The notes beneath the pieces were generated by a model. The model did not search any database and was not told the origin of the DNA. It worked only from the letters and a program-made list of their open reading frames with translations. 64,000 nt of DNA from a virus (taxonomy: Duplodnaviria > Heunggongvirae > Uroviricota > Caudoviricetes). Below are positions 7,664 to 64,000 of the stretch, one piece after another. The stretch spans positions 1-64,000 of IMG/VR virus record IMGVR_UViG_3300028797_000099; one strand, given 5' to 3'. The translations under genes were made by a program, and so were the position numbers. Position 1 is the stretch's first letter, and every line of letters begins with the position of its first letter.

Positions 7664-7692
7664 AATATAGCTAATTAAAGCTATATTGTCAA
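7664..7692 (-). promoter_or_regulatory. promoter TTGACA-17-TATATT (42-nt near-identical copy of 13744-13772)
   Basis: Read in the transcribed orientation: CTTGACAATATAGCTTTAATTAGCTATATT. Confidence 0.55.
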
Positions 7693-13743: not shown

Positions 13744-13772
13744 AATATAGCTAATTAAAGCTATATTGTCAA
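13744..13772 (-). promoter_or_regulatory. promoter TTGACA-17-TATATT (repeat of 7664-7692)
   Basis: Motif match. Confidence 0.55.
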
Positions 13773-16085: not shown

Positions 16086-17183
16086 CTAATTCAATCCAAT
16101 TAAATCAGGATGAACAAACTTGCCGTCTTCCTGGATGAGCTGGTCGTCGAACCATACCTTACCGCCACCGTATTCCTTGGTCATGATGAGGACCAAATCC
16201 CAGTGGATAGCAGACTGGTTACCATTGAACGCATCCTGATATGCGTTGCCCGGTGTAAAGTGGATTGAGCCAGCAATCTTCTCGTCGAAGAGGATGTCGC
16301 ACATCGGACGGTTAACCATCTTGTTGAGACCCATGGCGAACTCGCCTACGAAACGGGCTCCCTCATCCGTGTTGAAGATTGCGTCGAGAGCTGCCTGGTC
16401 GCCAGAACCGCACTTGGCTTCGACAATCTTGCCATCTTTAAAGACAAGGCTGATGTTGCTGAACGGCTTCCCGAGATACACGGTAGGCGTGTTGTAGGTG
16501 ATTGTTCCGTTTACGCTGTTCTTGACCGGGGCCGTATATACTTCGCCGTCAGGGATGTTCTTTTCGCCACAGCAAGGAATAGCGGGCAACCCCTCAATGC
16601 TGAAACGCAGGTCGGTTCCCGGTGCGACGATACGGACATTACGGGTCTTGGTCATGAGGTCAGCAAGAGGCTTGGCTGATTTTGCCATCTGAGTGTAATC
16701 CACGAGACAGGCATCGAAGTAGAAGTCCTCGAACGCATCGGTGGACATCTTTGCTTCCTGTGCCATGGCAGCGTTCGGCCAACGGGTGATGCACCACTTG
16801 GTATGGTCAACTCGATAGCGGAGAACGGGCTTCATAATCTGCTTGTACTCCGTGAGGATTTCACTAGGCACATCCGCCATTTCGAACGCATTTTCTGCGC
16901 CACGGACTGCGATGTACGCCTGCATTTCCTTCATGAGTGAAAGTTCGAAATTAGCACGGAATTGCTTGGCTTCCTTTGATGCGTACGTCACGAACTCCCT
17001 TTCCACACTGCTGTCATGGGTACGAACAATGGGTTTAGCACCAAGACCCGTAGCGAGGAAAGTCAACGCCTTCGAAATGCTCGACGGAGTATCGGTACAT
17101 TCAATAAGAATGTGGTCCCCTTTTTTCAAATTAACTGATTCAATGAGACGGTCGGCAAGGTTGAGAACTCTCGTATCAAACAT
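16086..17183 (-). CDS. M29-family aminopeptidase (AmpS/PepS-like)
   Basis: 365 aa. GEVYTAPV, FVGEFAMGLN and SIHFTPGNAY blocks resemble thermophilic aminopeptidase T/S. AAGGAG RBS. Confidence 0.65.
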   Translation of the reverse strand: MFDTRVLNLADRLIESVNLKKGDHILIECTDTPSSISKALTFLATGLGAKPIVRTHDSSVEREFVTYASKEAKQFRANFELSLMKEMQAYIAVRGAENAFEMADVPSEILTEYKQIMKPVLRYRVDHTKWCITRWPNAAMAQEAKMSTDAFEDFYFDACLVDYTQMAKSAKPLADLMTKTRNVRIVAPGTDLRFSIEGLPAIPCCGEKNIPDGEVYTAPVKNSVNGTITYNTPTVYLGKPFSNISLVFKDGKIVEAKCGSGDQAALDAIFNTDEGARFVGEFAMGLNKMVNRPMCDILFDEKIAGSIHFTPGNAYQDAFNGNQSAIHWDLVLIMTKEYGGGKVWFDDQLIQEDGKFVHPDLIGLN

Positions 17184-28795: not shown

Positions 28796-30007
28796 TTACT
28801 CCGATGCCTTGAAGTTATATACAGGCTTGATTGTTTCGACAATATCGCAACTGTCCTTGATGTTCTCGATGATTTCCTTTGCTGGCTTGTAAGCCATCGG
28901 GGATTCATCCAAAGTGGATTTATTTACACATGTACTGTAAATGCCACGCATGGACTTCTGGTACGCTTCGAGCGAGATGCTTTCCTTCGCATGAGAGCGT
29001 GACATCTTTCTTCCTGCTCCATGCGGTGCAGAGAAGTTCCAATCAGAGTTTCCCTTGCCCGTGCAAATAAGAGCCCCGTCCCTCATGTTCATAGGAATAA
29101 TCAGGCGTTCGCCTTCCTGTGCGGATACAGCTCCCTTACGGAGAATCATGTGCTTCATGTCGATGTAATTATGCAAGGTGCAGAACTTGTCCACGACATG
29201 CAGACGGAGCGCCCTGACAATCTCTTCAAGCATCGCTTCACGGTTACGTGTTGCAAAGTCCTGTGCCAACGCCATGTCATGCAGATATCCGTCGAACGAC
29301 TTGCCAGTGAGGTAAGACAGTTCCTTCGGGGGAGGGAAATGAGGGATGCTTGCCAACGCTGCGGGAAGCTCGTCTTCACGACCCTCACTCTTATACTTGG
29401 CTATTATGGCACCACGCTGCTGAGTCAGGTCGTTGCATTCGTCGATTGCAACTCCCTGCCAGTAATCACAGGTTGCCAACCCAAGATGTCGGGAACCTGA
29501 GTGGATTACGATGTACAGGTTACCATGAGAATCCTTGTCGCATTCGCAGAAGTGATTGCCTCCGCCCAAACTTCCAAGCGACAACAACTCGGTATATTCC
29601 ATCTTCCCTTCCTTGTAGACAATCATATCCTCGATAGGAAAGTCCTTTGCCATCGAGTGCTTGCTTTCACGATGGGACTTCCCAGACGGAATCCTTTCAC
29701 GGATAACCTTGTCCAATTTATCAAAATCAACCGAACGGTCTTTCAACTTGGCAACAAGCATACCACACCCAATGTCCACCCCGACGAGATTAGGCACAAT
29801 CTTGTCCTTAATCGTCATGGTAGTGCCAACGGTGCAGCCCTTCCCAGCATGCACATCGGGCATGATTCTAACCTGCATGTCCTTAGCCCAGCACTGACAC
29901 ATCATGTTCAACAACTGTGTATATGCATCTGGGTCGATATTGTCGCTGAATACCTTGGCGGTATTAAACCTACCCTGTATATCAATCATAATAAACCTAT
30001 CTACCAA
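28796..30007 (-). CDS. rtcB: RNA-splicing ligase RtcB
   Basis: 403 aa with the diagnostic RtcB motifs MPDVHAGKG, GCGM, GGGNHF and HGAGR. Confidence 0.9.
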   Translation of the reverse strand: MVDRFIMIDIQGRFNTAKVFSDNIDPDAYTQLLNMMCQCWAKDMQVRIMPDVHAGKGCTVGTTMTIKDKIVPNLVGVDIGCGMLVAKLKDRSVDFDKLDKVIRERIPSGKSHRESKHSMAKDFPIEDMIVYKEGKMEYTELLSLGSLGGGNHFCECDKDSHGNLYIVIHSGSRHLGLATCDYWQGVAIDECNDLTQQRGAIIAKYKSEGREDELPAALASIPHFPPPKELSYLTGKSFDGYLHDMALAQDFATRNREAMLEEIVRALRLHVVDKFCTLHNYIDMKHMILRKGAVSAQEGERLIIPMNMRDGALICTGKGNSDWNFSAPHGAGRKMSRSHAKESISLEAYQKSMRGIYSTCVNKSTLDESPMAYKPAKEIIENIKDSCDIVETIKPVYNFKASE

Positions 30008-30353
30008 TCAATTCTTTTTTATAACCATAGGCAATATCAAATGCCTTACCCATCTCAATCGCCGCTCGGATAGCCTTCTTGATGTCATTATCCTTCACAA
30101 CGCAGTCGTACAGATTTCCGAACGCAACTGGACTCGAATACTCCCGGTCACGAGTACGTATTTCACTCCACATGAGTGTATTGCCGTCATTAGTATCCTT
30201 GTCCTTGTAGAAAGACATGTTCAAAACGGTGTTATTGAACGTGATATTCAACATGCTACCGTCAGCAACTACTCCACAGTCAGGCAGATAGTGCATAGCG
30301 AAATCAAGGTCATCCTTCTTGATTCGCAAATATTGAAGATTCCGTCGTGCCAT
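29997..30353 (-). CDS. hypothetical protein
   Basis: Track ORF trimmed to MARRNL (AAAGGAAT RBS). The longer N-terminus would read through the tRNA. Confidence 0.45.
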   Translation of the reverse strand: MARRNLQYLRIKKDDLDFAMHYLPDCGVVADGSMLNITFNNTVLNMSFYKDKDTNDGNTLMWSEIRTRDREYSSPVAFGNLYDCVVKDNDIKKAIRAAIEMGKAFDIAYGYKKELIGR

Positions 30354-30375
30354 AGTATTCCTTTTCAAAAAGTTA

Positions 30376-30449
30376 ATCGGGCAGGTGGGATTCGAACCCA
30401 CACTGAAGGGGGTTTAAACCCCATTCCTCTACCAGTTGGGTTACTACCC
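30376..30449 (-). tRNA. tRNA, anticodon UAA (Leu-type decoding) with short variable loop and imperfect D-stem (atypical)
   Basis: Minus-strand cloverleaf. Acceptor CGGGUAG/CUGCCCG (one G-U). D-loop AACUGGUA. Anticodon stem GGGG/CCCC. Loop UUUAAAC, anticodon UAA. T-arm GUGGG-UUCGAAU-CCCAC. No encoded CCA. 74 nt. Confidence 0.7.
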
Positions 30450-30462
30450 GAACCAATTCAAT

Positions 30463-31611
30463 TTAGTCAGAAAGCAGACGCTTGATTCTGTCACGAGCCC
30501 GCATGAAGTTTTCATGGTAGGTTCCGTTCAGATAAACAACATCTTCTGTGCAGTAGTGCTTACCGAGAATGCTCATCAAGACCTGATACTGCTTCTTCCT
30601 ATCTTCGAAGCTGTTCGTGAGGCAATCCCTGCTTCCGTCCTGCACCCAGCTATCTTTTTTCGGAGGCATAACGAAGATGAGGTCGTATTTCAGGAACTTC
30701 GCATTGGCTTCGATAAGCTTATAGTCGTCTTCGGTGATGGCATACCTGTCATCCATCGAGTAATACTTAGCGTACATGAGCGTTGTCATTGCGTCACTGT
30801 CACAGATGTTGACCTTATGCCAACTTGCCGAGTTGACTCTGTACTGCTCGTTAAGAAAACGAAGGTAGTCATTAAAGGTCAGCTTGGTATCATCAGGCTG
30901 CGGTTCCTTTCCGTTTTGAGCGGCGATGTAAGTGTGACCGTATTCCTCGGTGTACCCAACATCGAAGTATCTGGCAAGGTCTTTCGTGAGCGTGGACTTG
31001 CCTTCCGATGCCGTACCGATAATCAGGACACGCTTGGCGAACTGAGCCTTGAACTCATGCCCAATGATTTCGTCCCAATACTTCATCGGTTCCTTGCGTA
31101 TCTTTGTTGCAGAAATCTGATTGAGCTCTCTCGGCAACAGATACACATTGGGGCCTTTACTGACCAACGACATGATTGCCTGTCTGTACGACGGTTCGCC
31201 AGTAAAGACAGTCGTTTTCTGAAGCAATTTCGTACACTTTCGCTTGCTGACATCAGCATTGCCGTACACGATTTCAGCGAGCTTATCGCTGAGAGCTTCC
31301 AACCATTCAGACCATTTGTCCATGTAACCTGCAATGCCGATATCGTTATCCTTCATCATGACGACGTGAACAAGCGGGTCGCCTTCAAACATCTTCTTGA
31401 TGATTTCATAGCGACGTTCAATCGGAAGACCGATTCTCGTACCACGGTCGCCATCAAGCCCGCAAACGGCAATGATTGCACCCTTAGAGCAGAGCTTCTT
31501 CGCTGCCATTACGAGGTCAAGATGACCTGTATGCATCGGGCTGAAAGACCCGAGGACAACCCCGTATTCACGAGGGCCACCGCTGATTTGGTTAATCACG
31601 TCGTCAAGCAT
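30463..31611 (-). CDS. nadR: bifunctional NMN adenylyltransferase / ribosylnicotinamide kinase (NadR-like, no HTH)
   Basis: N-terminal nucleotidyltransferase motif GSFSPMHTGH (H/TxGH). C-terminal P-loop kinase GTASEGKST. Domain order matches NadR. Confidence 0.75.
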   Translation of the reverse strand: MLDDVINQISGGPREYGVVLGSFSPMHTGHLDLVMAAKKLCSKGAIIAVCGLDGDRGTRIGLPIERRYEIIKKMFEGDPLVHVVMMKDNDIGIAGYMDKWSEWLEALSDKLAEIVYGNADVSKRKCTKLLQKTTVFTGEPSYRQAIMSLVSKGPNVYLLPRELNQISATKIRKEPMKYWDEIIGHEFKAQFAKRVLIIGTASEGKSTLTKDLARYFDVGYTEEYGHTYIAAQNGKEPQPDDTKLTFNDYLRFLNEQYRVNSASWHKVNICDSDAMTTLMYAKYYSMDDRYAITEDDYKLIEANAKFLKYDLIFVMPPKKDSWVQDGSRDCLTNSFEDRKKQYQVLMSILGKHYCTEDVVYLNGTYHENFMRARDRIKRLLSD

Positions 31612-34685: not shown

Positions 34686-35945
34686 ATGCCAAGCAACAAA
34701 AGACCTACACAAAACGACACCCCGGTCTGCAGCTTCTGCGGACGCCCGATTGAAGAAAACACCCTTGCCGTACGTGGCATGTCCCCGATAGGAGCATTCA
34801 TCTGCTCTGATTGCGCCAAGCTCGCCAGCAACATTATGGATGCAAGAGCAGCACAGCAACAGCAGAATGGTCGCAAGAAAGAGATGCAGCTACCGTCTCC
34901 GCACAAGATTAAGGAACACCTTGACACGTTCGTCATCGGACAGGACAAGGCCAAGGAAGCCCTTTCCATTGCGGTGTACAACCATTACAAGAGACTGGAA
35001 TACAACGAAATCCGCTCAGACGATGATGTGGAAATCGAGAAGTCCAATGTCCTCCTCGTAGGCCCGACGGGCTGCGGAAAGACGATGCTTGCAAGGGCTA
35101 TCGCAAAGATGCTCAATGTCCCGTTCGCCATCGCCGATGCAACCGTCCTGACCGAAGCTGGCTATGTGGGCGAAGATGTGGACAGCATCATTTCCCGCCT
35201 CCTCCAAGCGGCAAACATGGACGAGAAGGAAGCCGAGCACGGCATCATCTTCCTCGACGAAATCGACAAGATTGCAAGGAAGAGTGCCAACCCGTCCATT
35301 ACCAGGGACGTATCGGGCGAAGGCGTACAGCAGGGCCTGTTGAAGCTCCTCGAAGGAACTGAGGCCAAAATCAATCCGCAGGGTGGCAGAAAGCATCCCG
35401 AACAGAAACTGATTACCATTGACACCAGGAACATCCTCTTCATCTGCGGTGGAGCTTTCGAGGGCCTTGACGAAATCATCTCCGAACGTACTGAAAAAGG
35501 CGGCATGGGATTCGGTGCAGCCATCCACACGAGGGAAAAGAAAAGCCTCAGCGAACTGTTCGATAAGTGCGAACCTGATGACCTCGTGAGGTTCGGACTC
35601 ATGCCGGAACTCGTTGGCAGACTTCCCGTTACCGTCGCCCTTGACGAACTCGACGAGGACGCCCTCCGCAGAATCCTGACCGAACCGAAGAACGCTATCA
35701 TCAAGCAGTACACCAAGCTGCTCGAACTCGACGGAATCAAACTTTCGTTCGACGAGGAAGCGCTCGGGGAAATCGCCCGCCTGACCATCGAACGCCATAC
35801 TGGCGCCCGTGGCCTCCGTTCCATCGTCGAAGAGTTGCTCCACGACGCAATGTTCATGGGCCCCGACAGCAAGGAAAAGGAACTCCGCATCACGCAGGAT
35901 ATGGTCATGGAACACTTCCATATCCAAGAGCGGAAAGCTTCCTGA
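34686..35945 (+). CDS. clpX: ATP-dependent Clp protease ATP-binding subunit ClpX
   Basis: N-terminal C4 zinc finger CSFCGR...CSDC. Walker A GPTGCGKT. Walker [10 protein letters not shown]. Sensor and arginine-finger regions. 419 aa. Confidence 0.9.
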
Positions 35946-41327: not shown

Positions 41328-42278
41328 TTACCATCCTTGGGTTGTAACCTGAAGCAGGTCATGAATGTTTTCCTTACCCGTGAACGAGTAACGCTTGTCC
41401 AGAGCTGCGGTGCTCATGCGGGCTACCTGCATGTTCGGAACGTCGATGTACATCGTGGCACAGGTGATGTTCCCGTCAGCATCCTTCACATCCGTGTCGG
41501 AACCCTGGAACAGCGTATTGAAATCCTTGTCAGAGATATTGAGAGCCGTCTTCGGGTCCAACTGTTCTATGCCGAGGCAGTCGAACGACATCACCTTAAA
41601 GGGAAGAATCGAGCGCATCATCATGAATTTCAGCCAGTTGATATTAGCCTTGATTTCATCACTGTGCTTTTCAAGCATGGCATGACCACGACGCAAATCC
41701 TTGTAACCAAGGATAAGCACCTTCCTGTCGCTCAATGCAGGGAGGTCCTTCGCAGTCAAGATGCCCGCAATGGTATGGATTACAACATTGTCGCCGAGCG
41801 TGTCGATGAAGTCGAAGTCTTCCTTGTTGCTGGAATCCGTAAGCGAGATGCCGATACCGTGAACGAGACCGTCGCCCACAATCTTGCAGATGATGTCCTT
41901 GTACGGTTTCAGGTGACGCTGGTTGATTGTGATGTTTGCGATTACACCCTGTTCCTTCAAGCGTTCGAGGAACCAGACGAGGTCAGGATGGGCCAAGGCG
42001 TTGCCACCACCGATAGCGCACTCGGTTCCTGAATGAAGGGTAGCAATCATCGGTTCCAATGCCCTGAGGTCGCCATGCTTGCCATTTACCGTAGAGTTTT
42101 CATGGCAGTAAACGCATCCACCGTCGCACTGGTCGGTAATCTTGATGTCAAAGTTCTCGGGAAAATCATATGTGAAATGGTCGGCCATCGGGTCGAGCGT
42201 TTCCTTGATTTTGGTGCCATCCGAGTAGATGGTCACCATATGGTTGCCGTTTGTATATGTGTTAAGTATCGTTCGCAT
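41328..42278 (-). CDS. radical-SAM enzyme (candidate 7-carboxy-7-deazaguanine synthase QueE-like)
   Basis: CDGGCVYC is the CxxxCxxC radical-SAM cluster motif. It is adjacent to and co-oriented with the QueC-like gene. Confidence 0.5.
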   Translation of the reverse strand: MRTILNTYTNGNHMVTIYSDGTKIKETLDPMADHFTYDFPENFDIKITDQCDGGCVYCHENSTVNGKHGDLRALEPMIATLHSGTECAIGGGNALAHPDLVWFLERLKEQGVIANITINQRHLKPYKDIICKIVGDGLVHGIGISLTDSSNKEDFDFIDTLGDNVVIHTIAGILTAKDLPALSDRKVLILGYKDLRRGHAMLEKHSDEIKANINWLKFMMMRSILPFKVMSFDCLGIEQLDPKTALNISDKDFNTLFQGSDTDVKDADGNITCATMYIDVPNMQVARMSTAALDKRYSFTGKENIHDLLQVTTQGW

Positions 42279-42279
42279 C

Positions 42280-43257
42280 TTAGTCTCGCCAACGGTTTCT
42301 CTTCATTTCTTCAATGAATCCTTCGGGGTAGTACAATTCGTTAGACATTCCATTGTACGTTCCCGACATGTGAATGATTTCCGACGTAGCCTTGTCGTAA
42401 GTCTGGCATGCAACGCAATGTCCGCAACGACCCTTGTATGTCGGGCTATAACAGAAGCTACACAGTTCGATAGGGAAATGACGGTAGTTCAAGTTACGGA
42501 TAATATCCGCCTTTGTCAGGAACTGAAGGGGATAGCTGAACATGATATTCTTCTGCCCAACCACCGTCAACAGATGCTCCTGTGCGGCAAGGATATTGTG
42601 CGACCAGTTCCAGAAGTCGTCACCCTTGTGATATCCGAAGTGGTAGCAGGTCTTATTCCTGCCACACAGAGATACCATCGAGGCCATAAAGGGTTGTTGG
42701 AAAAGAGACGGTTCCGAACCGTTCCAGTTATCCATATTCCCTTCAAGCTTAATGAAATCTCGTTTAGGTTCATAGTCGTACTTCTTAGCGAGATATTCGA
42801 GAATCTTTTCCTGAGAAGCAACTTCAGACAAATAGTGATGGGATGTGCCAAACTGTTCACACCGGAAGCTGAGCAAGCGTGGCTTGATACCCTTTTCGAG
42901 CAAATCAACGAGAATAAGCGTACTGTCAAGACCACCACTGAATACTACCGCATTGTTGATAATATCTTCAAACTTCTTTGTAATAGGCTTTACTTCATGG
43001 AGCCTATCGAAGACCTTCTCTGCGGCAGATTTGAATTGGTGGGTTTCCTCAGGCGATTCGACATCGCACAAAACTTCTTCGGGAGCGGCGTCGCACAATT
43101 CCGCTTCATCTTTCTTTTCATCCTCAGCGTCCACCTTCAATTCAGCCTTATACGGCTTCTTTTTGGCCACGAGAGCTCGCTTCAACAGGGTGCCGTATTT
43201 CGGTTTAGACTTTGTTTCTGGACGAATCTTTTCGTTTGATTGTTTCTTTTTAGTCAT
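42280..43257 (-). CDS. queC: QueC-like PP-loop ATPase (7-cyano-7-deazaguanine synthase-like) with Lys-rich N-terminal extension
   Basis: PP-loop SGGLDS plus a C-terminal zinc cluster CSFCYSPTYKGRCGHCVACQ, typical of QueC. About 70-aa K-rich N-terminal tail. Confidence 0.55.
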   Translation of the reverse strand: MTKKKQSNEKIRPETKSKPKYGTLLKRALVAKKKPYKAELKVDAEDEKKDEAELCDAAPEEVLCDVESPEETHQFKSAAEKVFDRLHEVKPITKKFEDIINNAVVFSGGLDSTLILVDLLEKGIKPRLLSFRCEQFGTSHHYLSEVASQEKILEYLAKKYDYEPKRDFIKLEGNMDNWNGSEPSLFQQPFMASMVSLCGRNKTCYHFGYHKGDDFWNWSHNILAAQEHLLTVVGQKNIMFSYPLQFLTKADIIRNLNYRHFPIELCSFCYSPTYKGRCGHCVACQTYDKATSEIIHMSGTYNGMSNELYYPEGFIEEMKRNRWRD

Positions 43258-43289
43258 GTGATGCCTTTTGTTGAGTTTTGTTTAAAAAA

Positions 43290-43319
43290 AAATATAGTCT
43301 TTTAAATCCTTTTTGTCAA
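43290..43319 (-). promoter_or_regulatory. promoter TTGACA-18-TATATT (upstream of QueC-like gene)
   Basis: Motif match. Confidence 0.45.
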
Positions 43320-43338
43320 GCCAAACCACCGAAAGTCA

Positions 43339-43367
43339 TTGACAATTTACAAAATAATAACTATTTT
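43339..43367 (+). promoter_or_regulatory. plus-strand promoter TTGACA-17-TATTTT
   Basis: Divergent from the 43290-43319 promoter. Confidence 0.4.
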
Positions 43368-43404
43368 CTACTCAAACTAAACCAGACAACCAAAGGAGTC
43401 CACT

Positions 43405-43593
43405 ATGTATACAATTACAATAGACCAGTTCGCACTCATGGCTTATCTGGCAGCAGTCACTATGTTGCTTGTAGTCATGTCGATACAGCTTATCAAGATA
43501 AAGAAAAAACTGAACTCAATCGAATCAAGTTGGCATTCTTTTATCCTGGGACCACACAAGCGCAAGCACAAATATCCACTGGACCATGTATAA
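43405..43593 (+). CDS. small membrane protein
   Basis: AAAGGAG RBS. TM helix LMAYLAAVTMLLVVMSIQLI. Downstream of the plus promoter at 43339-43367. Confidence 0.5.
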   Translation: MYTITIDQFALMAYLAAVTMLLVVMSIQLIKIKKKLNSIESSWHSFILGPHKRKHKYPLDHV

Positions 43594-43596
43594 GAT

Positions 43597-43866
43597 ATGT
43601 CTAAGCATTCCGACTTTTACGATGAGATACTAGGCCACAGCGATACCCCAGATACAAGCAGCGAGTACGACCCTTACGACCCGCTCGGGTTATCTAGCGG
43701 ACGAACGTCCTGCACAATGCGACCAGTTGCCAGCCCTCTGGCGGAGGAAATGGCCGATGTGTTCATACAGGACTCCAAAGGCAACTGGGTGGAGGACAAA
43801 GAATCCGAGGAGAAACGGGAGATTCTCATGAGACGCCTCCAGCACATGAACTATTTTAGTGACTAA
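43597..43866 (+). CDS. hypothetical acidic protein
   Basis: 89 aa, followed by the terminator at 43875-43903. Confidence 0.5.
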   Translation: MSKHSDFYDEILGHSDTPDTSSEYDPYDPLGLSSGRTSCTMRPVASPLAEEMADVFIQDSKGNWVEDKESEEKREILMRRLQHMNYFSD

Positions 43867-43874
43867 CCATATAA

Positions 43875-43903
43875 AAAAGACCGCCAATTAAGGCGGCCTT
43901 TTT
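43875..43903. terminator. bidirectional terminator
   Basis: AGACCGCC-AATTAA-GGCGGCCT (one mismatch) flanked by an A-run and a T-run. Confidence 0.5.
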
Positions 43904-44171
43904 AAATCCAAGCCCAATCGTTATCCCAAATGTATTCAATAACTTCTTTTGGAGTGCATAGAATTTCCTGTTCACCATTGCCATCTATGCAGATATAGTT
44001 CTTAGCATCCTCATCGTATATGATTTGACCATCCCCAAATCGAACCACATTACATGCTCGATGAATTGCAATGCCGTATCGCCTATATTTGCCTAATACA
44101 TTCATCAAGGAATCTACACCACGAGCATATCGTGGTGCATTGATTCCATATGTCTTTCTCTGACTACGCAT
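43902..44171 (-). CDS. hypothetical protein
   Basis: 89-aa ORF immediately downstream of glf. Confidence 0.45.
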   Translation of the reverse strand: MRSQRKTYGINAPRYARGVDSLMNVLGKYRRYGIAIHRACNVVRFGDGQIIYDEDAKNYICIDGNGEQEILCTPKEVIEYIWDNDWAWI

Positions 44172-45427
44172 TAGACTAAACCAAAGATGCAGCCGGGTTC
44201 GGCAGGGTGTTCCGTAATCAATCTGTCATCGACCAATGCAGCCTTAATCACGTCGTCCATGTCCATGTACTTGTACAGACCGAGACGGCCAGTAGGGACA
44301 TACTTTTTCGGCAAGTAACCAATTATCTTCTGGTACTTTTCATTCTCGCTTGCAAGAGGATAGTATCGCTCGCACTTGCCACGTTCGTACTTCACAGGGT
44401 ACTCATAAGTAACAAGGGTCTTTTGTTCGTCAAGTTGTTCATTGTTGAAGAACTTGTGCTCAATGCTCCTCGTGTACGCTACTTCTGGCGAAGTGTAGTT
44501 CACAACAGCATTTCCCTGCCAGTTGTCAGTAGGAAGCAGCTTCTCTTCAAACTTCAATGAACGCCAGTCAAGCCAGTAATCTTCAAACCCGTCCTCGTGA
44601 ACAAGTCCAGCAAACAATTTGCTGTCGTTCATCAAAGAGTTCAACAGGTCTGATACATCACCAGAATAGAACACCTGGTCAAACTTGTTCTTGCTCATTC
44701 CATGTACACTGTGGTTGAATATATCTTCGCAGAAATCTTCACCATAGTGAATAGGATGCCCTTCGAACATGTTCTCAATCCATGTGGTATATCCTTCCTC
44801 GGGAATACCCTGATAGATGTCATTGAAGTAGTTGTTGTCGTAGGTGAACCTAAGCGGCAAACGCTTGATTATCCACGGTTCCAACTCTGTGCATGGCTTT
44901 CCCCACTGCTTTTCAGTGTAGTGCTTAATCAACTTTTCATACACGGTAGTTCCAACAAGGGAGATTGCCTGTTCTTCAAGGTTCCTTGGGGATTCAAACG
45001 GATGTTCCTCCTTGTACCGTTTGATTTCGGCTTGAATAATACCTTTCACAATGCTAGGAGACACAATATTCACACCAAGATTCCGTTCGAACAAGCGAAC
45101 AAATGTATTCATGTTGAACGGGAGATTGTAGGTCTCCGATTCCTTACTAGCCTGATTGTAATACACGGCAATCGGACTGTTCACAAAGTTGTTGAACTTA
45201 GCGAACTTGTTCGCAAACTTCCATACAGCAGGGTCAGACGTATGGAAGATATGTGCGCCATACTTGTGAACGGTGATACCTTCTACCTTTTCAGTATAGC
45301 AGTTACCGCCAAGGTGTTTACGCTTCTCGATAATCGTGATGTCTGCCGGATTGACACCAAACTCATTAACGAGTCGCTGATAGATTACTGCATTGTAAAG
45401 GCCCGCACCTACGAACAGATACTTCAT
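44171..45427 (-). CDS. glf: UDP-galactopyranose mutase
   Basis: N-terminal FAD-binding KYLFVGAGLYNAVIYQRL. C-terminal RLGLYKYMDMDDVIKAAL block characteristic of UGM. Confidence 0.7.
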   Translation of the reverse strand: MKYLFVGAGLYNAVIYQRLVNEFGVNPADITIIEKRKHLGGNCYTEKVEGITVHKYGAHIFHTSDPAVWKFANKFAKFNNFVNSPIAVYYNQASKESETYNLPFNMNTFVRLFERNLGVNIVSPSIVKGIIQAEIKRYKEEHPFESPRNLEEQAISLVGTTVYEKLIKHYTEKQWGKPCTELEPWIIKRLPLRFTYDNNYFNDIYQGIPEEGYTTWIENMFEGHPIHYGEDFCEDIFNHSVHGMSKNKFDQVFYSGDVSDLLNSLMNDSKLFAGLVHEDGFEDYWLDWRSLKFEEKLLPTDNWQGNAVVNYTSPEVAYTRSIEHKFFNNEQLDEQKTLVTYEYPVKYERGKCERYYPLASENEKYQKIIGYLPKKYVPTGRLGLYKYMDMDDVIKAALVDDRLITEHPAEPGCIFGLV

Positions 45428-49035: not shown

Positions 49036-49064
49036 AATATACATAATTAAATAACGCCTGTCAA
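49036..49064 (-). promoter_or_regulatory. promoter TTGACA-17-TATATT
   Basis: Motif match. Confidence 0.5.
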
Positions 49065-56470: not shown

Positions 56471-56499
56471 TTGACAATCATGTTTTAATTATGTATATT
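56471..56499 (+). promoter_or_regulatory. plus-strand promoter TTGACA-17-TATATT
   Basis: Precedes the secreted protease homolog. Confidence 0.5.
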
Positions 56500-56527
56500 A
56501 GTATCGTAAACCAAAAGGAGTATAACC

Positions 56528-57190
56528 ATGAAAAAAACAATCATCCTCATCATCTGCATCTTGGCGACCGCCCTGTTCGCTAACCAAGAAAAGCATAACA
56601 TCACAAAACTATACGGAACAGGCATTGCATTCAACGAACACTACATCGTCACCACAGGCGATATTGCTCGCCATACAAAGAAACTGGATTCCATCGTCGT
56701 TATGGTAAACGACGAGCCAATTATCGCCAGAGTAGAACATTCGGCAGACACCCTGCTCGATAGTACAAAGAATGAATATGTCAATTTGGCTATTATCCAA
56801 GTTGACAACAAGGTATGGCTCAACTCGTGCAAAATCGAAGACCGAGCAATTCGAACAGGTGAGCCCGTCACCGTAACTGGATATCTCGAAACAAATCCAA
56901 AAGTTCAGCCAAATGCGTTCCCTGCGAAGGTTATTACCGACACGAATTTCCCGGAGTATGTCGCCCGTGCGATTGACACCCGATTGCCAGGTGGGTTCAG
57001 CGGTTCCGCAATATCTAGTCACGGAAAGGTAATCGGATTGGGTTTCCGAAACGGCACGAACAACCAAGGCAAGTCATTCTTCTATGACGGAATGCTATTA
57101 TCAAGATACATCTTGAACCAAAACAGGCCGTCAACGACCGATGTATCAAAATGCACATACCAAGTGCGAAGCTACGTTACCGTGAAGTAA
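56528..57190 (+). CDS. secreted trypsin-like serine protease homolog (paralog of 62768-63436; catalytic His possibly substituted)
   Basis: Signal peptide. GTGIAFNEHYIVTTGDIA aligns to GTGFFVNSKYIVTAYHVV of the paralog. GFSGSAI is a GDSGG-like Ser motif. Confidence 0.55.
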   Translation: MKKTIILIICILATALFANQEKHNITKLYGTGIAFNEHYIVTTGDIARHTKKLDSIVVMVNDEPIIARVEHSADTLLDSTKNEYVNLAIIQVDNKVWLNSCKIEDRAIRTGEPVTVTGYLETNPKVQPNAFPAKVITDTNFPEYVARAIDTRLPGGFSGSAISSHGKVIGLGFRNGTNNQGKSFFYDGMLLSRYILNQNRPSTTDVSKCTYQVRSYVTVK

Positions 57191-59167: not shown

Positions 59168-59920
59168 CTAGAAGCTGGAACCAGCATCAGAAGGGTTAAA
59201 CTGGAAGTTAACCGTGTCAAGACCTTCCGAATCAGATATGTTTCCACGGATATCGTGTATATGGCCGCACTTAGGGCCGTTGTTCCTTCCGCCGCCTATT
59301 GGGACATATCCGTTAGCAATAACGTCGAATTGACCGTCGCTGTACTGCACGATGGCCGCCTCGTGGTTTTCCGTAGGGACAGCAGCGACGATACGCTTCG
59401 GGTGAAGCGCTATCTCCGGCTTGTCTGGAGGAGGCGGGGGAAGAGGCCGAGGCGGTATAGGCGGCATCGGGCCAATCGGATTAGGCCAGATTGGCTTAGG
59501 ATGGCAACCGCAGTCATGATGGAACACGGGAGCAACCGGGCGCATCGGGCCCATACATCCGCAGACTGGCGCCTGCTGAGGCATGCACTGGTAACGGAAT
59601 GTCGGATGCGGATGCCAATGCTGGTGCCACGGGTGGCCCCAGTAGTTAGCCCAGAAATGCGGGTACGGTTCCTGAACATGCGGCAACCCGAAACTTCCAC
59701 ACGGAGGCGGTGCCGGGTACATTCTCGACGGGGTGTATTCCCAAGGGCCTGCCTGTCTCGGTGGAGGCGGAAAGCACGGTCCAAACCATGGAGGTGGCTG
59801 GAACGGCATGAAAAGTGGTGGAGGAGGCGGACAGCAATGATGGAACGCTGGGGTCTGCCTCATGTATGGCATCCTGTCATAAATATCGTTAGGTACGCCG
59901 TTGTTGCATCCGCAGCTCAT
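59168..59920 (-). CDS. Pro/Cys/His/Trp-rich low-complexity protein
   Basis: 250 aa with CCPPPPP, PPPPRQAGPW, HFWANYWGHPWHQHWHPHP and PPRPLPPPPP. The locally GC-rich coding sequence produces several antisense shadow ORFs. Confidence 0.5.
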   Translation of the reverse strand: MSCGCNNGVPNDIYDRMPYMRQTPAFHHCCPPPPPLFMPFQPPPWFGPCFPPPPRQAGPWEYTPSRMYPAPPPCGSFGLPHVQEPYPHFWANYWGHPWHQHWHPHPTFRYQCMPQQAPVCGCMGPMRPVAPVFHHDCGCHPKPIWPNPIGPMPPIPPRPLPPPPPDKPEIALHPKRIVAAVPTENHEAAIVQYSDGQFDVIANGYVPIGGGRNNGPKCGHIHDIRGNISDSEGLDTVNFQFNPSDAGSSF

Positions 59921-61018: not shown

Positions 61019-61456
61019 TTATTTTTTGCCCGTGCTTCCAAAGCCGCCACGGTTTTCACCCGTAAGTTCAGATTCAATGAAGTTGAGCTTCGGCTGGTTT
61101 TCAATCACACGGAACTGTGCAATGCGGCTACCCTTTTCGATTGTGGTATCTTCCGTTGCATAAACAGGAAGTTTCCACCAGTCATTCGGACCGCAGTAAG
61201 AACAGTCGACCACACCGACACTGTTGGTCTGGAGAACCTTGAAGTTCTTGTATGTGGAGCTACGAGGTGCGAGATGCGCTTCGTAACCCTGCGGCAACTG
61301 CATAGCAACGCCAAGATGGATAAGCTTAAATTCACCCTTCTTCAACGTAACAGTTTCGGCTGCTGCCAAGTCAATCCAGTCAGACTTGCCTGCAACATAG
61401 GTCAGGCGGGCGATGCTGTCGTCAAGGTACTTGATTTTGATATTCAATTCACTCAT
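61019..61456 (-). CDS. dut: dUTP diphosphatase (dUTPase)
   Basis: Start MSELNI behind an AAAGGA RBS. Motifs GVVDCSYCG (motif 3) and RGGFGSTG (motif 5). The longer track N-terminus is in frame but has no RBS. Confidence 0.8.
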
Positions 61457-61475
61457 TTTTTGATTCCTTTTTTGA

Positions 61476-61862
61476 TTAAAACAGGTCAGACGAATCCGTT
61501 TCGTCAGACTCTTCCGTCGGTGCATACTTGCCCTCGATTGTAGCAGTAAAGTCAAACATCGAAGACACAGATACATCCACATTGGAATATTCCACATCGT
61601 AGTGAGAAAGCGTATCTTCAAGGTCAGATGCAATCCTCTCTTTCAAATACGAGTCAAGCGAAGTTTCTGTCTCGAACTTAGCCCCATCCGGGTTCGCCAC
61701 AGCCCAGTCCTTAGAATGGTATGCCACAGTGATGACGACAACATTGCCTGCATCCTGGTCCATTTCGCTTTCTACTTTCATGCAATCGCAGTCAATTTCA
61801 AGTTGGTCCTGAAACCATTCCTTGACATCAACGCTCAAATCTTCAAGCTCTTCATCGTTCAT
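61476..61862 (-). CDS. hypothetical very acidic protein (DNA-mimic candidate)
   Basis: 128 aa, about 26% D/E, few basic residues. Confidence 0.45.
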
Positions 61863-61874
61863 ACGAACCTCCGA

Positions 61875-62768
61875 TTACAATATAGTATTTACACCCTTTT
61901 CTTTCAAGAGGGCAAAGAACTTTTCTGGCGTAATAATCTTAACGCCGAGCTGTTTTGCCTTCTTGGACTTCGTGGAGGTAGAGTTTTCGTCAGCCTGTAC
62001 GAGATAGTCCAGCTTTGCGCTTACGCTTCCCTTTACCTGTCCACCAAATGTCTTCACAGTGCGTTCAAGGTCGTCACGGTTGTATTCCATAGCTCCCGTG
62101 AAGCAGAACGACATTCCGCCGAGCGCATCCATTTCTACAGGTTTCTTGAAAGTGAATTTGCCCAATTCAAGAACCCCGACGATTTCATCGAGAGCAGCGA
62201 ACATCTGGGTAAACAGATTCATTTTGACATCATATGCGCTAAACCCATTGATTGCTAGCGTGGAGAGTCTTTCCGGGGTATACGAGCTGAATGTAGCCAT
62301 TGTCGAAAGCGGATTTTCATACCATCCGCCGAACAATTCAAGCGTTTCCAATCCAGACAGCTTTGCTTCGGAGAAACCATCAAAGTCAAACATAGACAGG
62401 AACTTGCTCATTGAAATCGGCTTGCTTAACGCAGCAAGCATATTGTTTCGCAACTTAGCCCCGTTTACCTGGCTCTTCATGGCAAGCGAAATGTCGTTTC
62501 CGCCAGACACAGCATCGGAAATCAGCTCAGGAATCTTTTTCATTCCCACTTCGTTGACAAGGGCGGTAACACAACTTTCGCCTGCACCGTCTATTTCCAA
62601 CACGTCGAAGAAGTTGGCAAACTTGTGGACAATCTTCTGCGGGCACGACGGGTTCACGCAGCAAACCATCCCGTTGTCCATTACATTCAACTCTCCGTGG
62701 CATACAGGACATTCCTTAGGGAACGCAATGTTAGATGCCACATATTCTTTGTACTTTTCTGGAACCAT
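61875..62768 (-). CDS. ligA: NAD+-dependent DNA ligase, C-terminal fragment (Zn finger, HhH, BRCT)
   Basis: CPVCHGEL...CVNPSCP zinc finger, helix-hairpin-helix region, and BRCT SFCFTGAMEYNRDDLERTVKTFGGQV...DYLV. The start overlaps the protease stop as TAATG. Confidence 0.7.
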   Translation of the reverse strand: MVPEKYKEYVASNIAFPKECPVCHGELNVMDNGMVCCVNPSCPQKIVHKFANFFDVLEIDGAGESCVTALVNEVGMKKIPELISDAVSGGNDISLAMKSQVNGAKLRNNMLAALSKPISMSKFLSMFDFDGFSEAKLSGLETLELFGGWYENPLSTMATFSSYTPERLSTLAINGFSAYDVKMNLFTQMFAALDEIVGVLELGKFTFKKPVEMDALGGMSFCFTGAMEYNRDDLERTVKTFGGQVKGSVSAKLDYLVQADENSTSTKSKKAKQLGVKIITPEKFFALLKEKGVNTIL

Positions 62769-63436
62769 TATAACTCCCATGCAAGTTTAGCTGACTTGAA
62801 CTCATCCAGCGAGTTCAAGATACTGATGACACATTTTTTAACATTTTTGGTGTTCGGATATTCCGTCACACCGTTTCTTTCAAGCATACGAATAACCTCC
62901 GTAGACTTAACCAAGTTGCTCGTATTGCGTTCTACCGTCGATACCGACCTGCTTACGCCACCAACCCTTCCATCCCTGGTAAAATTGGGCCCGCCGGACA
63001 TTCCAACCTGCAGTAGTCCATTCATGCGATAAAAACTAGGTTCGCCTTCATAGTTGTACAACAAGCGTATATCCATCGGTATAATAGTCGGATTATGCTC
63101 GATAAACGGCTGAGGATAACCATACGCAGTTAGCTTCTCCCCGATAGGCAGTTCCGTATGGGCTAAGCGGCATACCATAGGCAATGAGGTAGGAGTCTCT
63201 TTCAACTTTAACAAGGCAATATCAGACAGCGAGTCGTAATCCACTATACGGACCTGGTAGCAAGTATCATTCTTCATGTCATAATAGCATGCATGTCTAT
63301 AATTCGACACTACATGATATGCAGTCACAATGTACTTGCTGTTTACAAAGAACCCCGTTCCTCCATGCACATCCTCGACAACCTCAGCAAAGGAAGCGCA
63401 AGCGAACAACAAAATGATAGCGAGTAGTTTTTTCAT
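62768..63436 (-). CDS. secreted trypsin-like serine protease (S1 family)
   Basis: Signal peptide. His motif TAYHV, Asp DIALLKL, Ser GMSGGP. Confidence 0.7.
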   Translation of the reverse strand: MKKLLAIILLFACASFAEVVEDVHGGTGFFVNSKYIVTAYHVVSNYRHACYYDMKNDTCYQVRIVDYDSLSDIALLKLKETPTSLPMVCRLAHTELPIGEKLTAYGYPQPFIEHNPTIIPMDIRLLYNYEGEPSFYRMNGLLQVGMSGGPNFTRDGRVGGVSRSVSTVERNTSNLVKSTEVIRMLERNGVTEYPNTKNVKKCVISILNSLDEFKSAKLAWEL

Positions 63437-63462
63437 GATGTTACCTCTTTGTTTACACCTAA

Positions 63463-63491
63463 AATATACCTAATTAAATGTTTCCCGGCAA
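63463..63491 (-). promoter_or_regulatory. promoter TTGCCG-17-TATATT inside the split ligA locus
   Basis: Drives the protease gene and the ligA C-terminal fragment. Confidence 0.45.
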
Positions 63492-63508
63492 CACCTTTAA
63501 TGTAAAAT

Positions 63509-64000
63509 TTAATTTACAACCTTATCGACCTGCGGAATCACTTCGCCGTGACGGGAGATTTCCACCTTGCAACCAATCTGAATACCCATCTGCATCATCT
63601 TGTTCAAGTTCGAGAGGGAAGCTCGTTCGACAGTCACCCCGTCAAGCTCGGTCGGAACCAAGATGGCAACAGGGGAGAGATAACGACCCTTGCAGCTCCA
63701 TTCTATTCCAATTAGAGTTGTAATCGCCGTTTCCAGCTCGAACTTCACAGCACACTGAGTCATCGGGGTCTTTCTACGGAGGTCGTCATAGTCGATGTCG
63801 TTAATCTTGACGACAATGCCGTCGCAACCATAGTCGATAGTCTTCTTGCGGCTTGCATACACCTTTTCACGGAACGCATTTACCTGTTCGAGGGTATCGA
63901 CCAGCTCGTACATCGGGACTTCAAATCCGCAGGATTCGAGCCACTGCATCTTTTCCAGCTCGGTCTTGAACTGGGTCGGAGCCCTGTTAAGAACATCGTA
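63509..64000 (-). CDS. ligA: NAD+-dependent DNA ligase, N-terminal fragment (adenylation/OB domains; 5' end outside window)
   Basis: DGIVVKIND, AVKFELE and GEVIPQVDKVV match the end of the LigA NTase and OB-fold domains. The ORF runs off the window edge. Confidence 0.65.
   Translation of the reverse strand, partial: YDVLNRAPTQFKTELEKMQWLESCGFEVPMYELVDTLEQVNAFREKVYASRKKTIDYGCDGIVVKINDIDYDDLRRKTPMTQCAVKFELETAITTLIGIEWSCKGRYLSPVAILVPTELDGVTVERASLSNLNKMMQMGIQIGCKVEISRHGEVIPQVDKVVN

Follow-up and report, generated by a model that had tools for sequence, protein, structure and literature searches.

Why would a phage carry the parts of one DNA ligase in two genes, with the gene of a protease between them? 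The question is raised by one end of a 64,000-nucleotide stretch of tailed-phage DNA (Caudoviricetes; IMG/VR record IMGVR_UViG_3300028797_000099, positions 1 to 64,000), which as a whole is referred to as the window. Positions 61875-64000 carry on the minus strand, in this order, a gene for the adenylation and OB domains of an NAD+-dependent DNA ligase (LigN, whose start lies beyond the window edge), a gene for a serine protease, and a gene for the zinc finger, HhH and BRCT domains of the ligase (LigC). We consider it likely that the locus encodes a two-polypeptide NAD+ ligase, with the gene of an unrelated exported protease lying between the subunit genes. It would be an independent and well-conserved case of such an enzyme, broken at the same linker between OB fold and zinc finger (OB-Zn linker) as in T5-like phages, and it does not overturn the current understanding of these ligases.

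Domain structure of the two ligase parts

The reading frame of the LigN fragment (63512-64000) is already open at the window edge and is closed by a TAA (63511-63509). It was matched by Pfam DNA_ligase_aden over profile positions 165-250 of 253 (E 1.2e-8) and, after this nucleotidyltransferase domain, by DNA_ligase_OB (PF03120, E 5e-16). In a PDB sequence search it was aligned with residues 257-391 of E. coli LigA. The fragment holds motif IV (DGIVVK) and motif V (KF), and its C-terminal end reads ...GEVIPQVDKVVN before the TAA. In relatives the full LigN has 443-449 residues, and on a full-length ortholog PF01653 was matched with an E value of 2.8e-25. The KxDG motif (K187-C-D-G) was found in orthologs with 92-98% identity in the region shared with the fragment, and it was invariant in a 37-sequence alignment including canonical LigA. 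Residues invariant in the LigN alignments with canonical LigA were Y106/D115/Y118/D119 (domain Ia), K187-D189-G190, D343-G344-V346-K348 and K369. Specificity for NAD+ is conferred by the Tyr and Asp residues of domain Ia that bind nicotinamide mononucleotide (NMN), which are Y22, D32, Y35 and D36 in E. coli. An Ia-type motif, YYNG..SDDxYD, was conserved in the LigN orthologs and the model showed Ia-like helices at 91-136, a region that lies outside the window. The AlphaFold2 (AF2) model of a LigN ortholog, with a predicted local distance difference test score (pLDDT) of 89.6, was matched by Foldseek to E. coli and Thermus LigA and to chain A of the PR1 ligase (E 1.5e-21). In the protease-bearing clade, LigN begins with an additional helical domain of ~90 residues (L004:3927-4200, residues 1-90; AF2 pLDDT ~90) that has no counterpart in Fibrobacter LigA or in the other split N subunits. 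A Pfam scan of the clade-specific N-terminal 150 residues gave no credible match.

LigC was matched by Pfam BRCT (E 1e-12) and aligned with residues 400-669 of E. coli LigA. Its four-Cys zinc finger consists of C20, C23, C37/38 and C42 (CxxC...CxxxxC); C20, C23, C37 and C42 were invariant in 27 sequences, and Gly and Thr residues of the BRCT domain were also invariant in the LigC alignment. A helical region of the HhH type was seen in the AF2 model, without detection by Pfam. The model had a pLDDT of 88.9 and was matched by Foldseek to E. coli LigA (291 columns) and to subunit B of the PR1 phage ligase (288 columns, E 8.9e-9). A Shine-Dalgarno sequence of the GGAG type was present 5' of the LigC ATG in all relatives, including those with a 26-nucleotide spacer. 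A possible upstream start of LigC (62780, MGVIM...) was discarded, since L005 and L006 do not conserve it but do conserve the GGAG-spaced ATG at 62768.

The two parts are complementary. On phrog_3869, a full-length LigA family of 656 positions, the N part covered 12-381 and the C part 386-655. An earlier note, made from this DNA sequence alone, had described a ligase split into two open reading frames (ORFs) at the boundary of OB fold and zinc finger and had proposed aligning both pieces to LigA. The alignments with E. coli residues 257-391 and 400-669 and the complementary Pfam, PDB and PHROG matches agree with that description, with unchanged coordinates. The overlap of the protease TAA with the LigC ATG as TAATG, which the note had also pointed out, is present in the sequence. 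The spacer from the LigN stop to the protease ATG measures 72 nucleotides.

Conservation and selection of the gene block

A pattern scan of IMG/VR with the C part yielded six contigs of 28-419 kilobases (kb) from different metagenomes, with the same three genes in order. Compared with the window, the N part was 92-98%, the protease 65-68% and the C part 83-87% identical. More distant contigs with the same block had C parts 52%, 46% and 44% identical (L009/L010, L011 and L029, respectively). In these, the block consisted of a LigN of 443-449 residues, a Trypsin_2 protein of 215-226 residues, a LigC of 285-307 residues, a small ORF and a dUTPase gene. The order LigN-protease-LigC-x-dUTPase, where x is the small ORF, was seen in L004, L009-L011 and L029 and defines the conserved block. 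The same three genes are present on a 101-kb contig of a metagenome-assembled genome (MAG) from sheep reticulum. In total, at least 11 contigs, assembled independently and drawn from JGI, ENA, Logan and NCBI samples (L001-L006, L024, L009-L011 and L029), showed the three-gene order, at 44-98% identity. In GenBank phage DNA, the window matched nothing beyond short dUTPase stretches of SPbeta-like phages, and no close cultured relative was found.

Pairwise ratios of nonsynonymous to synonymous substitution rates (dN/dS) in the close group were 0.047 for LigN, 0.142 for the protease and 0.074 for LigC, at a dS of ~0.8-0.9. Because of these low ratios, all three genes are taken to be maintained by selection. 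The identities of the two ligase halves to the window (61875-64000 against L001-L006) were discordant, with 98% for the N and 83% for the C half in L006 compared with 94-95% and 87% in L001. This discordance implies recombination between lineages in or near the protease gene.

Table 1. Features of the ligase locus and of the protease paralog, in window coordinates
Feature	Position	Strand	Evidence
LigN, 3' part	63509-64000	-	Translation; Pfam DNA_ligase_aden and DNA_ligase_OB; PDB LigA matches
Promoter before the protease gene	63463-63491	-	Motif scan; recurrence in the window; conservation in relatives
Shine-Dalgarno-like GAGG, 7 nucleotides 5' of the protease ATG	63444-63447	-	Sequence; AAAGAGG kept in L001-L006
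Protease gene, 222 residues	62768-63436	-	Pfam Trypsin_2; PHROG 9683; PDB HtrA-type matches
Shine-Dalgarno GGGAG, 5 nucleotides 5' of the LigC ATG, within the end of the protease gene	62774-62778	-	Sequence
LigC gene, 297 residues	61875-62768	-	Pfam BRCT; PDB LigA; PHROG 3869; AF2 model
128-residue acidic protein (61862-61476; x of the block) and dUTPase	61019-61862	-	ORFs; synteny
Protease paralog gene, 220 residues (56528-57190), with promoter motif (56471-56499)	56471-57190	+	BLASTP; hhalign; motif

The protease and the promoter of its gene

The protein encoded between the subunit genes was matched by Pfam Trypsin_2 (E 2.5e-16) and by PHROG 9683 "protease". Its best PDB sequence matches were HtrA1 (E 8e-12) and the protease domains of DegS and DegP, and JGI labels its orthologs as "S1-C subfamily serine protease". 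The trypsin fold and the His-Asp-Ser triad are common to the phage protease and these S1C domains. Unlike HtrA, DegS and DegP, the phage protein is only 222 residues long, has four conserved Cys and is limited to one phage clade; no PDZ domain was found in it, as the Pfam and PDB matches comprise the protease domain only. His41, Asp72, Ser147 and the four Cys were invariant in 18 of 18 orthologs. All 18 also share the basic, hydrophobic and AxA-like parts of an N-terminal Sec-type signal peptide (MKKLLAIILLFACASFA/E). Outside this phage clade, to which the family is confined, identity falls steeply to 30%. The nonsynonymous evolution of the protease is three to five times faster than that of the ligase halves. 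From these features we infer an exported enzyme that would act on envelope or periplasmic proteins of the host.

The paralog proposed in the earlier note was recovered as a true but distant homolog by BLASTP (27% identity, E 3e-6) and by hhalign (probability 96.6%, E 6.5e-10). It carries a signal peptide and had no Pfam match. An Asp replaces the catalytic His and, in the hhalign register, an Asn stands in place of the catalytic Asp, and the paralog is probably an inactive pseudo-protease. Its gene is preceded by the same promoter motif as the protease gene. A fast-evolving, presumably exported protease and a catalytically dead paralog would both be candidates for interactions of the phage with the host envelope.

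The element in front of the protease gene (63491-63463) reads TTGCCG-N7-TTTAATT-N3-TATATT, with 17-nucleotide spacing. Taken alone, it is a 9/12 match to sigma-70, and 7 such matches occurred in the scanned region compared with 3.6 ± 1.9 in shuffles. The motif TTGMC-N18-TATATT, by comparison, was present in 21 copies in the window versus 0.08 expected, and TTTAATTNNNTATATT with at most one mismatch in 17 copies versus 0.13 expected. The copy before the protease gene was kept in all relatives; in L009/L010/L011, where the flanking proteins are 35-52% identical, it was found as TTGACA...TTTAATT...TATATT. Because the motif recurs in the window and is kept at this level of protein identity, the element is very probably a real phage promoter. 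Its earlier description as a consensus phage promoter holds for the recurrent, conserved motif, but not on the strength of the sigma-70 match. The reading of the intervening DNA as an autonomous gene, with a promoter of its own and a serine protease with a signal peptide as its product, is supported.

The 21 motif sites span window positions 3857-63491 (e.g., 7664-7692, 13744-13772, 49036-49064 and 56471-56499) and lie mostly on the minus strand, before ORFs. The full recurrent motif is TTGACA-N7-TTTAATT-N3-TATATT. Sites without the TTTAATT box (e.g., 32331, 34573, 37442 and 38694) form a subset that suggests two promoter classes. LigN in the relatives is preceded by a motif variant without this box. 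No terminator-like site was found after LigN or after the protease gene in a scan of the region, so that read-through and the internal promoter probably both contribute to transcription of the protease and LigC genes.

Comparison with known two-subunit ligases

Two-subunit LigA is already known from T5-like phages, and the present locus is a further, independently derived example. The T5 ligA/ligB gene annotation gives a split LigA for T5-like phages (cited in PMC3632103), and two jumbo-phage reviews name NAD+ ligases, not split ones (PMC7824862, PMC11662467). Records of the T5-like (Demerecviridae) gene pair are AAU05253/AAU05254 in T5 and BF23_00133/134 in BF23. In BF23, ligA encodes 323 residues (adenylation and OB domains) and ligB 259 residues (BRCT and a weak HhH), the latter starting 8 residues before the CxxC. 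The gap of ~200 nucleotides between them contains a predicted promoter and no inserted gene.

The T5-like genes are broken in the same OB-Zn linker, and there, too, each of the two ORFs has its own start. LigN and the T5-like N parts end 9-10 residues after G-x-[VI]-IP, and the C parts start 8-19 residues before the CxxC. Since the break is the same, the OB-Zn linker appears to be a recurrent and tolerated fission point of LigA.

Common descent with the T5-like pair was considered and rejected on the basis of PHROG scores, a tree and LigC identities. LigN scored 249 bits against phrog_3869 compared with 135 against the T5-A family (PHROG 3359), and LigC 126 bits against phrog_3869 compared with 86 against the T5-B family (PHROG 3498). 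LigC was 22-24% identical to T5-like LigB versus 37-41% to Fibrobacter LigA. In a neighbor-joining tree of 116 N-region sequences, T5-like LigA was placed among full-length LigAs, far from this clade. The present phage further differs from the T5-like phages by the extra N-terminal domain of LigN and by the protease gene in the gap. The ligase is predicted to be the same kind of enzyme as that of the T5-like phages, from a separate lineage in which the split arose independently.

Two further systems resemble the locus in part. In Vibrio phage Athena (Thalassavirus) the order is ligA-gp58-gp57-ligB, so that unrelated genes occupy the gap as they do here. The two Athena genes are hypothetical, neither encodes a protease or a signal-peptide protein, and the ligase belongs to the T5-like lineage. 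The LigN and LigC models match chains A and B of the heterodimeric DNA ligase of phage PR1 on nicked DNA (PDB 9HU3 and 9I5I, released 2026, as described by the deposit titles), at sequence identities of 20-23%. According to the structure title, a split LigA can work as a heterodimer on the nick.

Relation to Fibrobacter LigA and the probable host

Outside the phage clade, the nearest relatives were the chromosomal LigA proteins of Fibrobacter and Fibrobacteraceae, with 55-59% identity to LigN and the above 37-41% to LigC. In L014 and L025-L027 this LigA is a single, unsplit polypeptide of 630-634 residues in a bacterial context, with no protease gene; the bacterial neighbours in L014, L025 and L026 are mnmA, bioD, a ZIP transporter gene and uvrB. 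The scan of genome contigs for bacterial LigA, which included a restrictive pattern step, yielded only 5 loci. Protease orthologs and some of the ligase fragments have been deposited as "MAG: Fibrobacter sp.". These deposits, together with the closest LigA being that of Fibrobacter, point to gene exchange between phage and Fibrobacter host, in either direction. The window belongs to a very large phage (related contigs reach ~420 kb) from rumen or gut samples that probably infects Fibrobacter. The Fibrobacter-like ligase and the binning of orthologs with Fibrobacter MAGs thereby provide a host lead for a ~420-kb rumen phage clade.

A chromosomal LigA gene adjoining NADH dehydrogenase genes was observed in Fibrobacteraceae MAG72 (JABUUT010000005.1 = L018:5001-6950; also L019 and L028). 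It has an in-frame TAA in the OB-Zn linker, resulting in ORFs of 354 and 290 residues in the same frame (...VDEIVG, stop, RGAKMITSK...). The ORFs are separated by this TAA and three further codons (9 nucleotides). The TAA may truly divide an essential gene, may be read through or may be a sequencing error.

Origin of the arrangement

The protease gene had been called a moron in the earlier note. Its own conserved promoter fits this term, but the gene was present in every clade contig examined, down to a LigC identity of 44%, it is under purifying selection, and no terminator was found with it. Because it occurs in all members of a deep clade and evolves under purifying selection, the protease gene is best described as old and fixed, not as a sporadic recent insertion.

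The insertion, which the earlier note saw as the event that creates the split, may not have done so. Close relatives in the ligase family show the break with different inserts, with a stop codon alone (the Fibrobacteraceae MAG) or with the halves unlinked; in L022 (130 kb), five small ORFs lie between the N and C subunit genes. The break may well predate the protease insert, and the gap between already separate subunit genes would then be a permissive insertion site. The variety of inserts fits this model, and the neighbor-joining tree is compatible with either order of split and insertion.

The extent of LigA fission was assessed by a HMMER search with LigC of 1.84 billion cluster representatives (50%-identity clusters). 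Among the best 150 matches, 79 were of full-length size and 50 of stand-alone size (201-330 residues), 46 of the latter with a CxxC in the first 45 residues. At about a third of the clusters, this suggests that separate Zn-HhH-BRCT subunits are common in metagenomes. Judging from these 50 stand-alone clusters and from the differently split phage relatives, fission of LigA at the OB-Zn linker is frequent. Annotation pipelines that label stand-alone Zn-HhH-BRCT genes "truncated ligase" or "BRCT protein" probably mislabel functional subunits.

Proposed function and alternative explanations

In the proposed mechanism, LigN (~446 residues) would comprise the extra N-terminal helical domain, the NMN-binding domain Ia, the nucleotidyltransferase domain and the OB fold, and would adenylylate its own motif-I lysine with NAD+ by means of the Ia and nucleotidyltransferase domains. 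LigC, with zinc finger, HhH and BRCT domains, would supply the module that clamps the DNA. In LigA, DNA is bound mainly by the HhH/Zn module, which also closes the clamp on the nick. Because this module is in LigC, the subunits would have to associate; they are predicted to assemble non-covalently around the nick and to seal it as the T5-like heterodimer does. A NadR-like NAD-salvage gene in the window (30463-31611; cytidylyltransferase-like and AAA_28 domains) is consistent with a phage that maintains its NAD+ supply. The protease would be made from its own phage-type promoter and ribosome-binding site and exported by the Sec pathway, most likely to the periplasm or envelope of the host, with no part in ligation. 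Translation of LigC would be coupled to the end of the protease gene through the TAATG. The protease gene would lie where it does because the gap between the subunit genes served as an insertion site, and conserved synteny would later have fixed it there.

A functional link between protease and ligase was weighed as an alternative, in which the promoter class times LigC together with an envelope protease, or the protease processes a ligase subunit. The order LigN-protease-LigC is strictly kept across the deep clade, the promoter variant of LigN in the relatives differs from the protease-LigC promoter, protease and LigC genes overlap as TAATG in the window and in L001-L004, and the extra domain of LigN is restricted to loci with the protease. 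However, the Sec signal peptide and the four conserved Cys point to export, away from a cytoplasmic ligase, and the small ORF x and the dUTPase gene are equally syntenic, so that conservation of the order is not specific to the protease. In addition, other split ligases have unrelated inserts or none, and read-through from LigN into the protease gene is likely in the absence of a terminator. Such coupling is considered unlikely. A regulatory form of the idea, in which LigN and LigC are expressed from different promoter variants and LigC is coupled with the exported protease, so that sealing is gated to a stage of infection, is regarded as similarly doubtful. If it were true, the phage would have a replicative ligase of two components whose activity is gated in time, which arose independently of the T5 enzyme and belongs to a family exchanged between Fibrobacter and its huge phages.

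Several observations weigh against the proposed two-polypeptide ligase. Pfam Nlig-Ia was not recorded for the LigN clade and the HhH model stayed below threshold on LigC; the Ia and HhH domains were assigned from motifs and structure models. The start of LigN, including the KxDG motif, was taken from the orthologs that are 92-98% identical, and the signal peptide of the protease was assigned by inspection. In L016, L017, L020 (contigs with a T4-like portal) and L023 an N subunit was found with no BRCT gene within 3-5 kb, and in L012 and L030 a C subunit without an adjacent N subunit. The halves might therefore sometimes work alone. In the T4-like contigs and L023, either the C subunit is encoded elsewhere or the ligase consists of the N part only. 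LigN of the T4-like contigs is 52-55% identical, and a Dam methyltransferase gene follows it there.

These loci bear on the possibility of two independent products, LigN being a minimal, self-sufficient ligase and LigC a separate BRCT/HhH protein for DNA binding or scaffolding. Some viral NAD+ ligases lack the C-terminal domains and provide a model for a LigN that acts alone. The solitary N subunits of L016, L020 and L023 and the C subunits of L012 and L030 fit this view, but unlinked partners may lie elsewhere in those genomes. In the present clade, by contrast, the two genes are neighbours in every case and evolve under similar constraint. Domain-deletion work on LigA has shown that nicks are not bound and sealed efficiently without the HhH module, and the solved T5-like enzyme of PR1 is, by its PDB title, a heterodimer on nicked DNA. 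Independent products were judged improbable, and a joint ligase of LigN and LigC remains the preferred explanation.

The locus could also be a disrupted pseudogene with decaying halves in a phage that depends on the LigA of its host. The reading frame is indeed broken by a stop codon and a foreign gene, and in one related Fibrobacteraceae MAG the corresponding site holds just an in-frame TAA. Against decay, dN/dS is 0.05 and 0.07 for the two halves at a dS of ~0.8-0.9, the catalytic and zinc-binding residues are all kept, the Shine-Dalgarno sequence and ATG of LigC are conserved, and both ORFs are intact across lineages diverged to 44-52% identity. A pseudogene is accordingly a very improbable explanation, and the strong constraint on both halves speaks equally against the truncated ligase that had been offered as an option in the earlier note.

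An assembly artifact, in which part of a protease gene was misjoined into an otherwise continuous ligA to give a chimeric contig, was to be checked according to the original description and is practically excluded: the window is metagenome-like, has no close phage relative in GenBank and encodes a C-part protein that an exact-sequence look-up did not find on record, but the same architecture recurs in at least 11 independent contigs at 44-98% identity, with conserved stop, promoter, Shine-Dalgarno and start signals at the junctions. Rejoining of the halves by an intein, an intron or translational bypass, which would suit the clean domain-boundary break, where hardly any residue is lost compared with unsplit Fibrobacter LigA, is just as implausible and had been doubted from the start. 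LigN is followed by three stops in its own frame, and LigC is read in another frame. Rfam matched no intron or other RNA family between 61000 and 64000 at E ≤ 1, and Pfam found no Hint or homing-endonuclease domains in the insert. The intervening DNA is instead a gene under constraint for a protease with a signal peptide, and its own promoter and Shine-Dalgarno sequence are conserved.

Other genes in the window

A protein of 250 residues rich in Pro, Cys, His and Trp, with PPPPP runs and many CG and HH pairs, is encoded on the minus strand at 59168-59920; it had no Pfam match and is conserved in L004 (8855-9595). Auxiliary genes of the kind found in huge phages are located at 28796-31611, 34686-35945 and 41328-45427. 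They encode an RtcB RNA ligase, the NadR-like NMN adenylyltransferase/kinase, ClpX, radical-SAM and QueC-like proteins and a UDP-galactopyranose mutase. A gene for an M29 aminopeptidase is present at 16086-17183.

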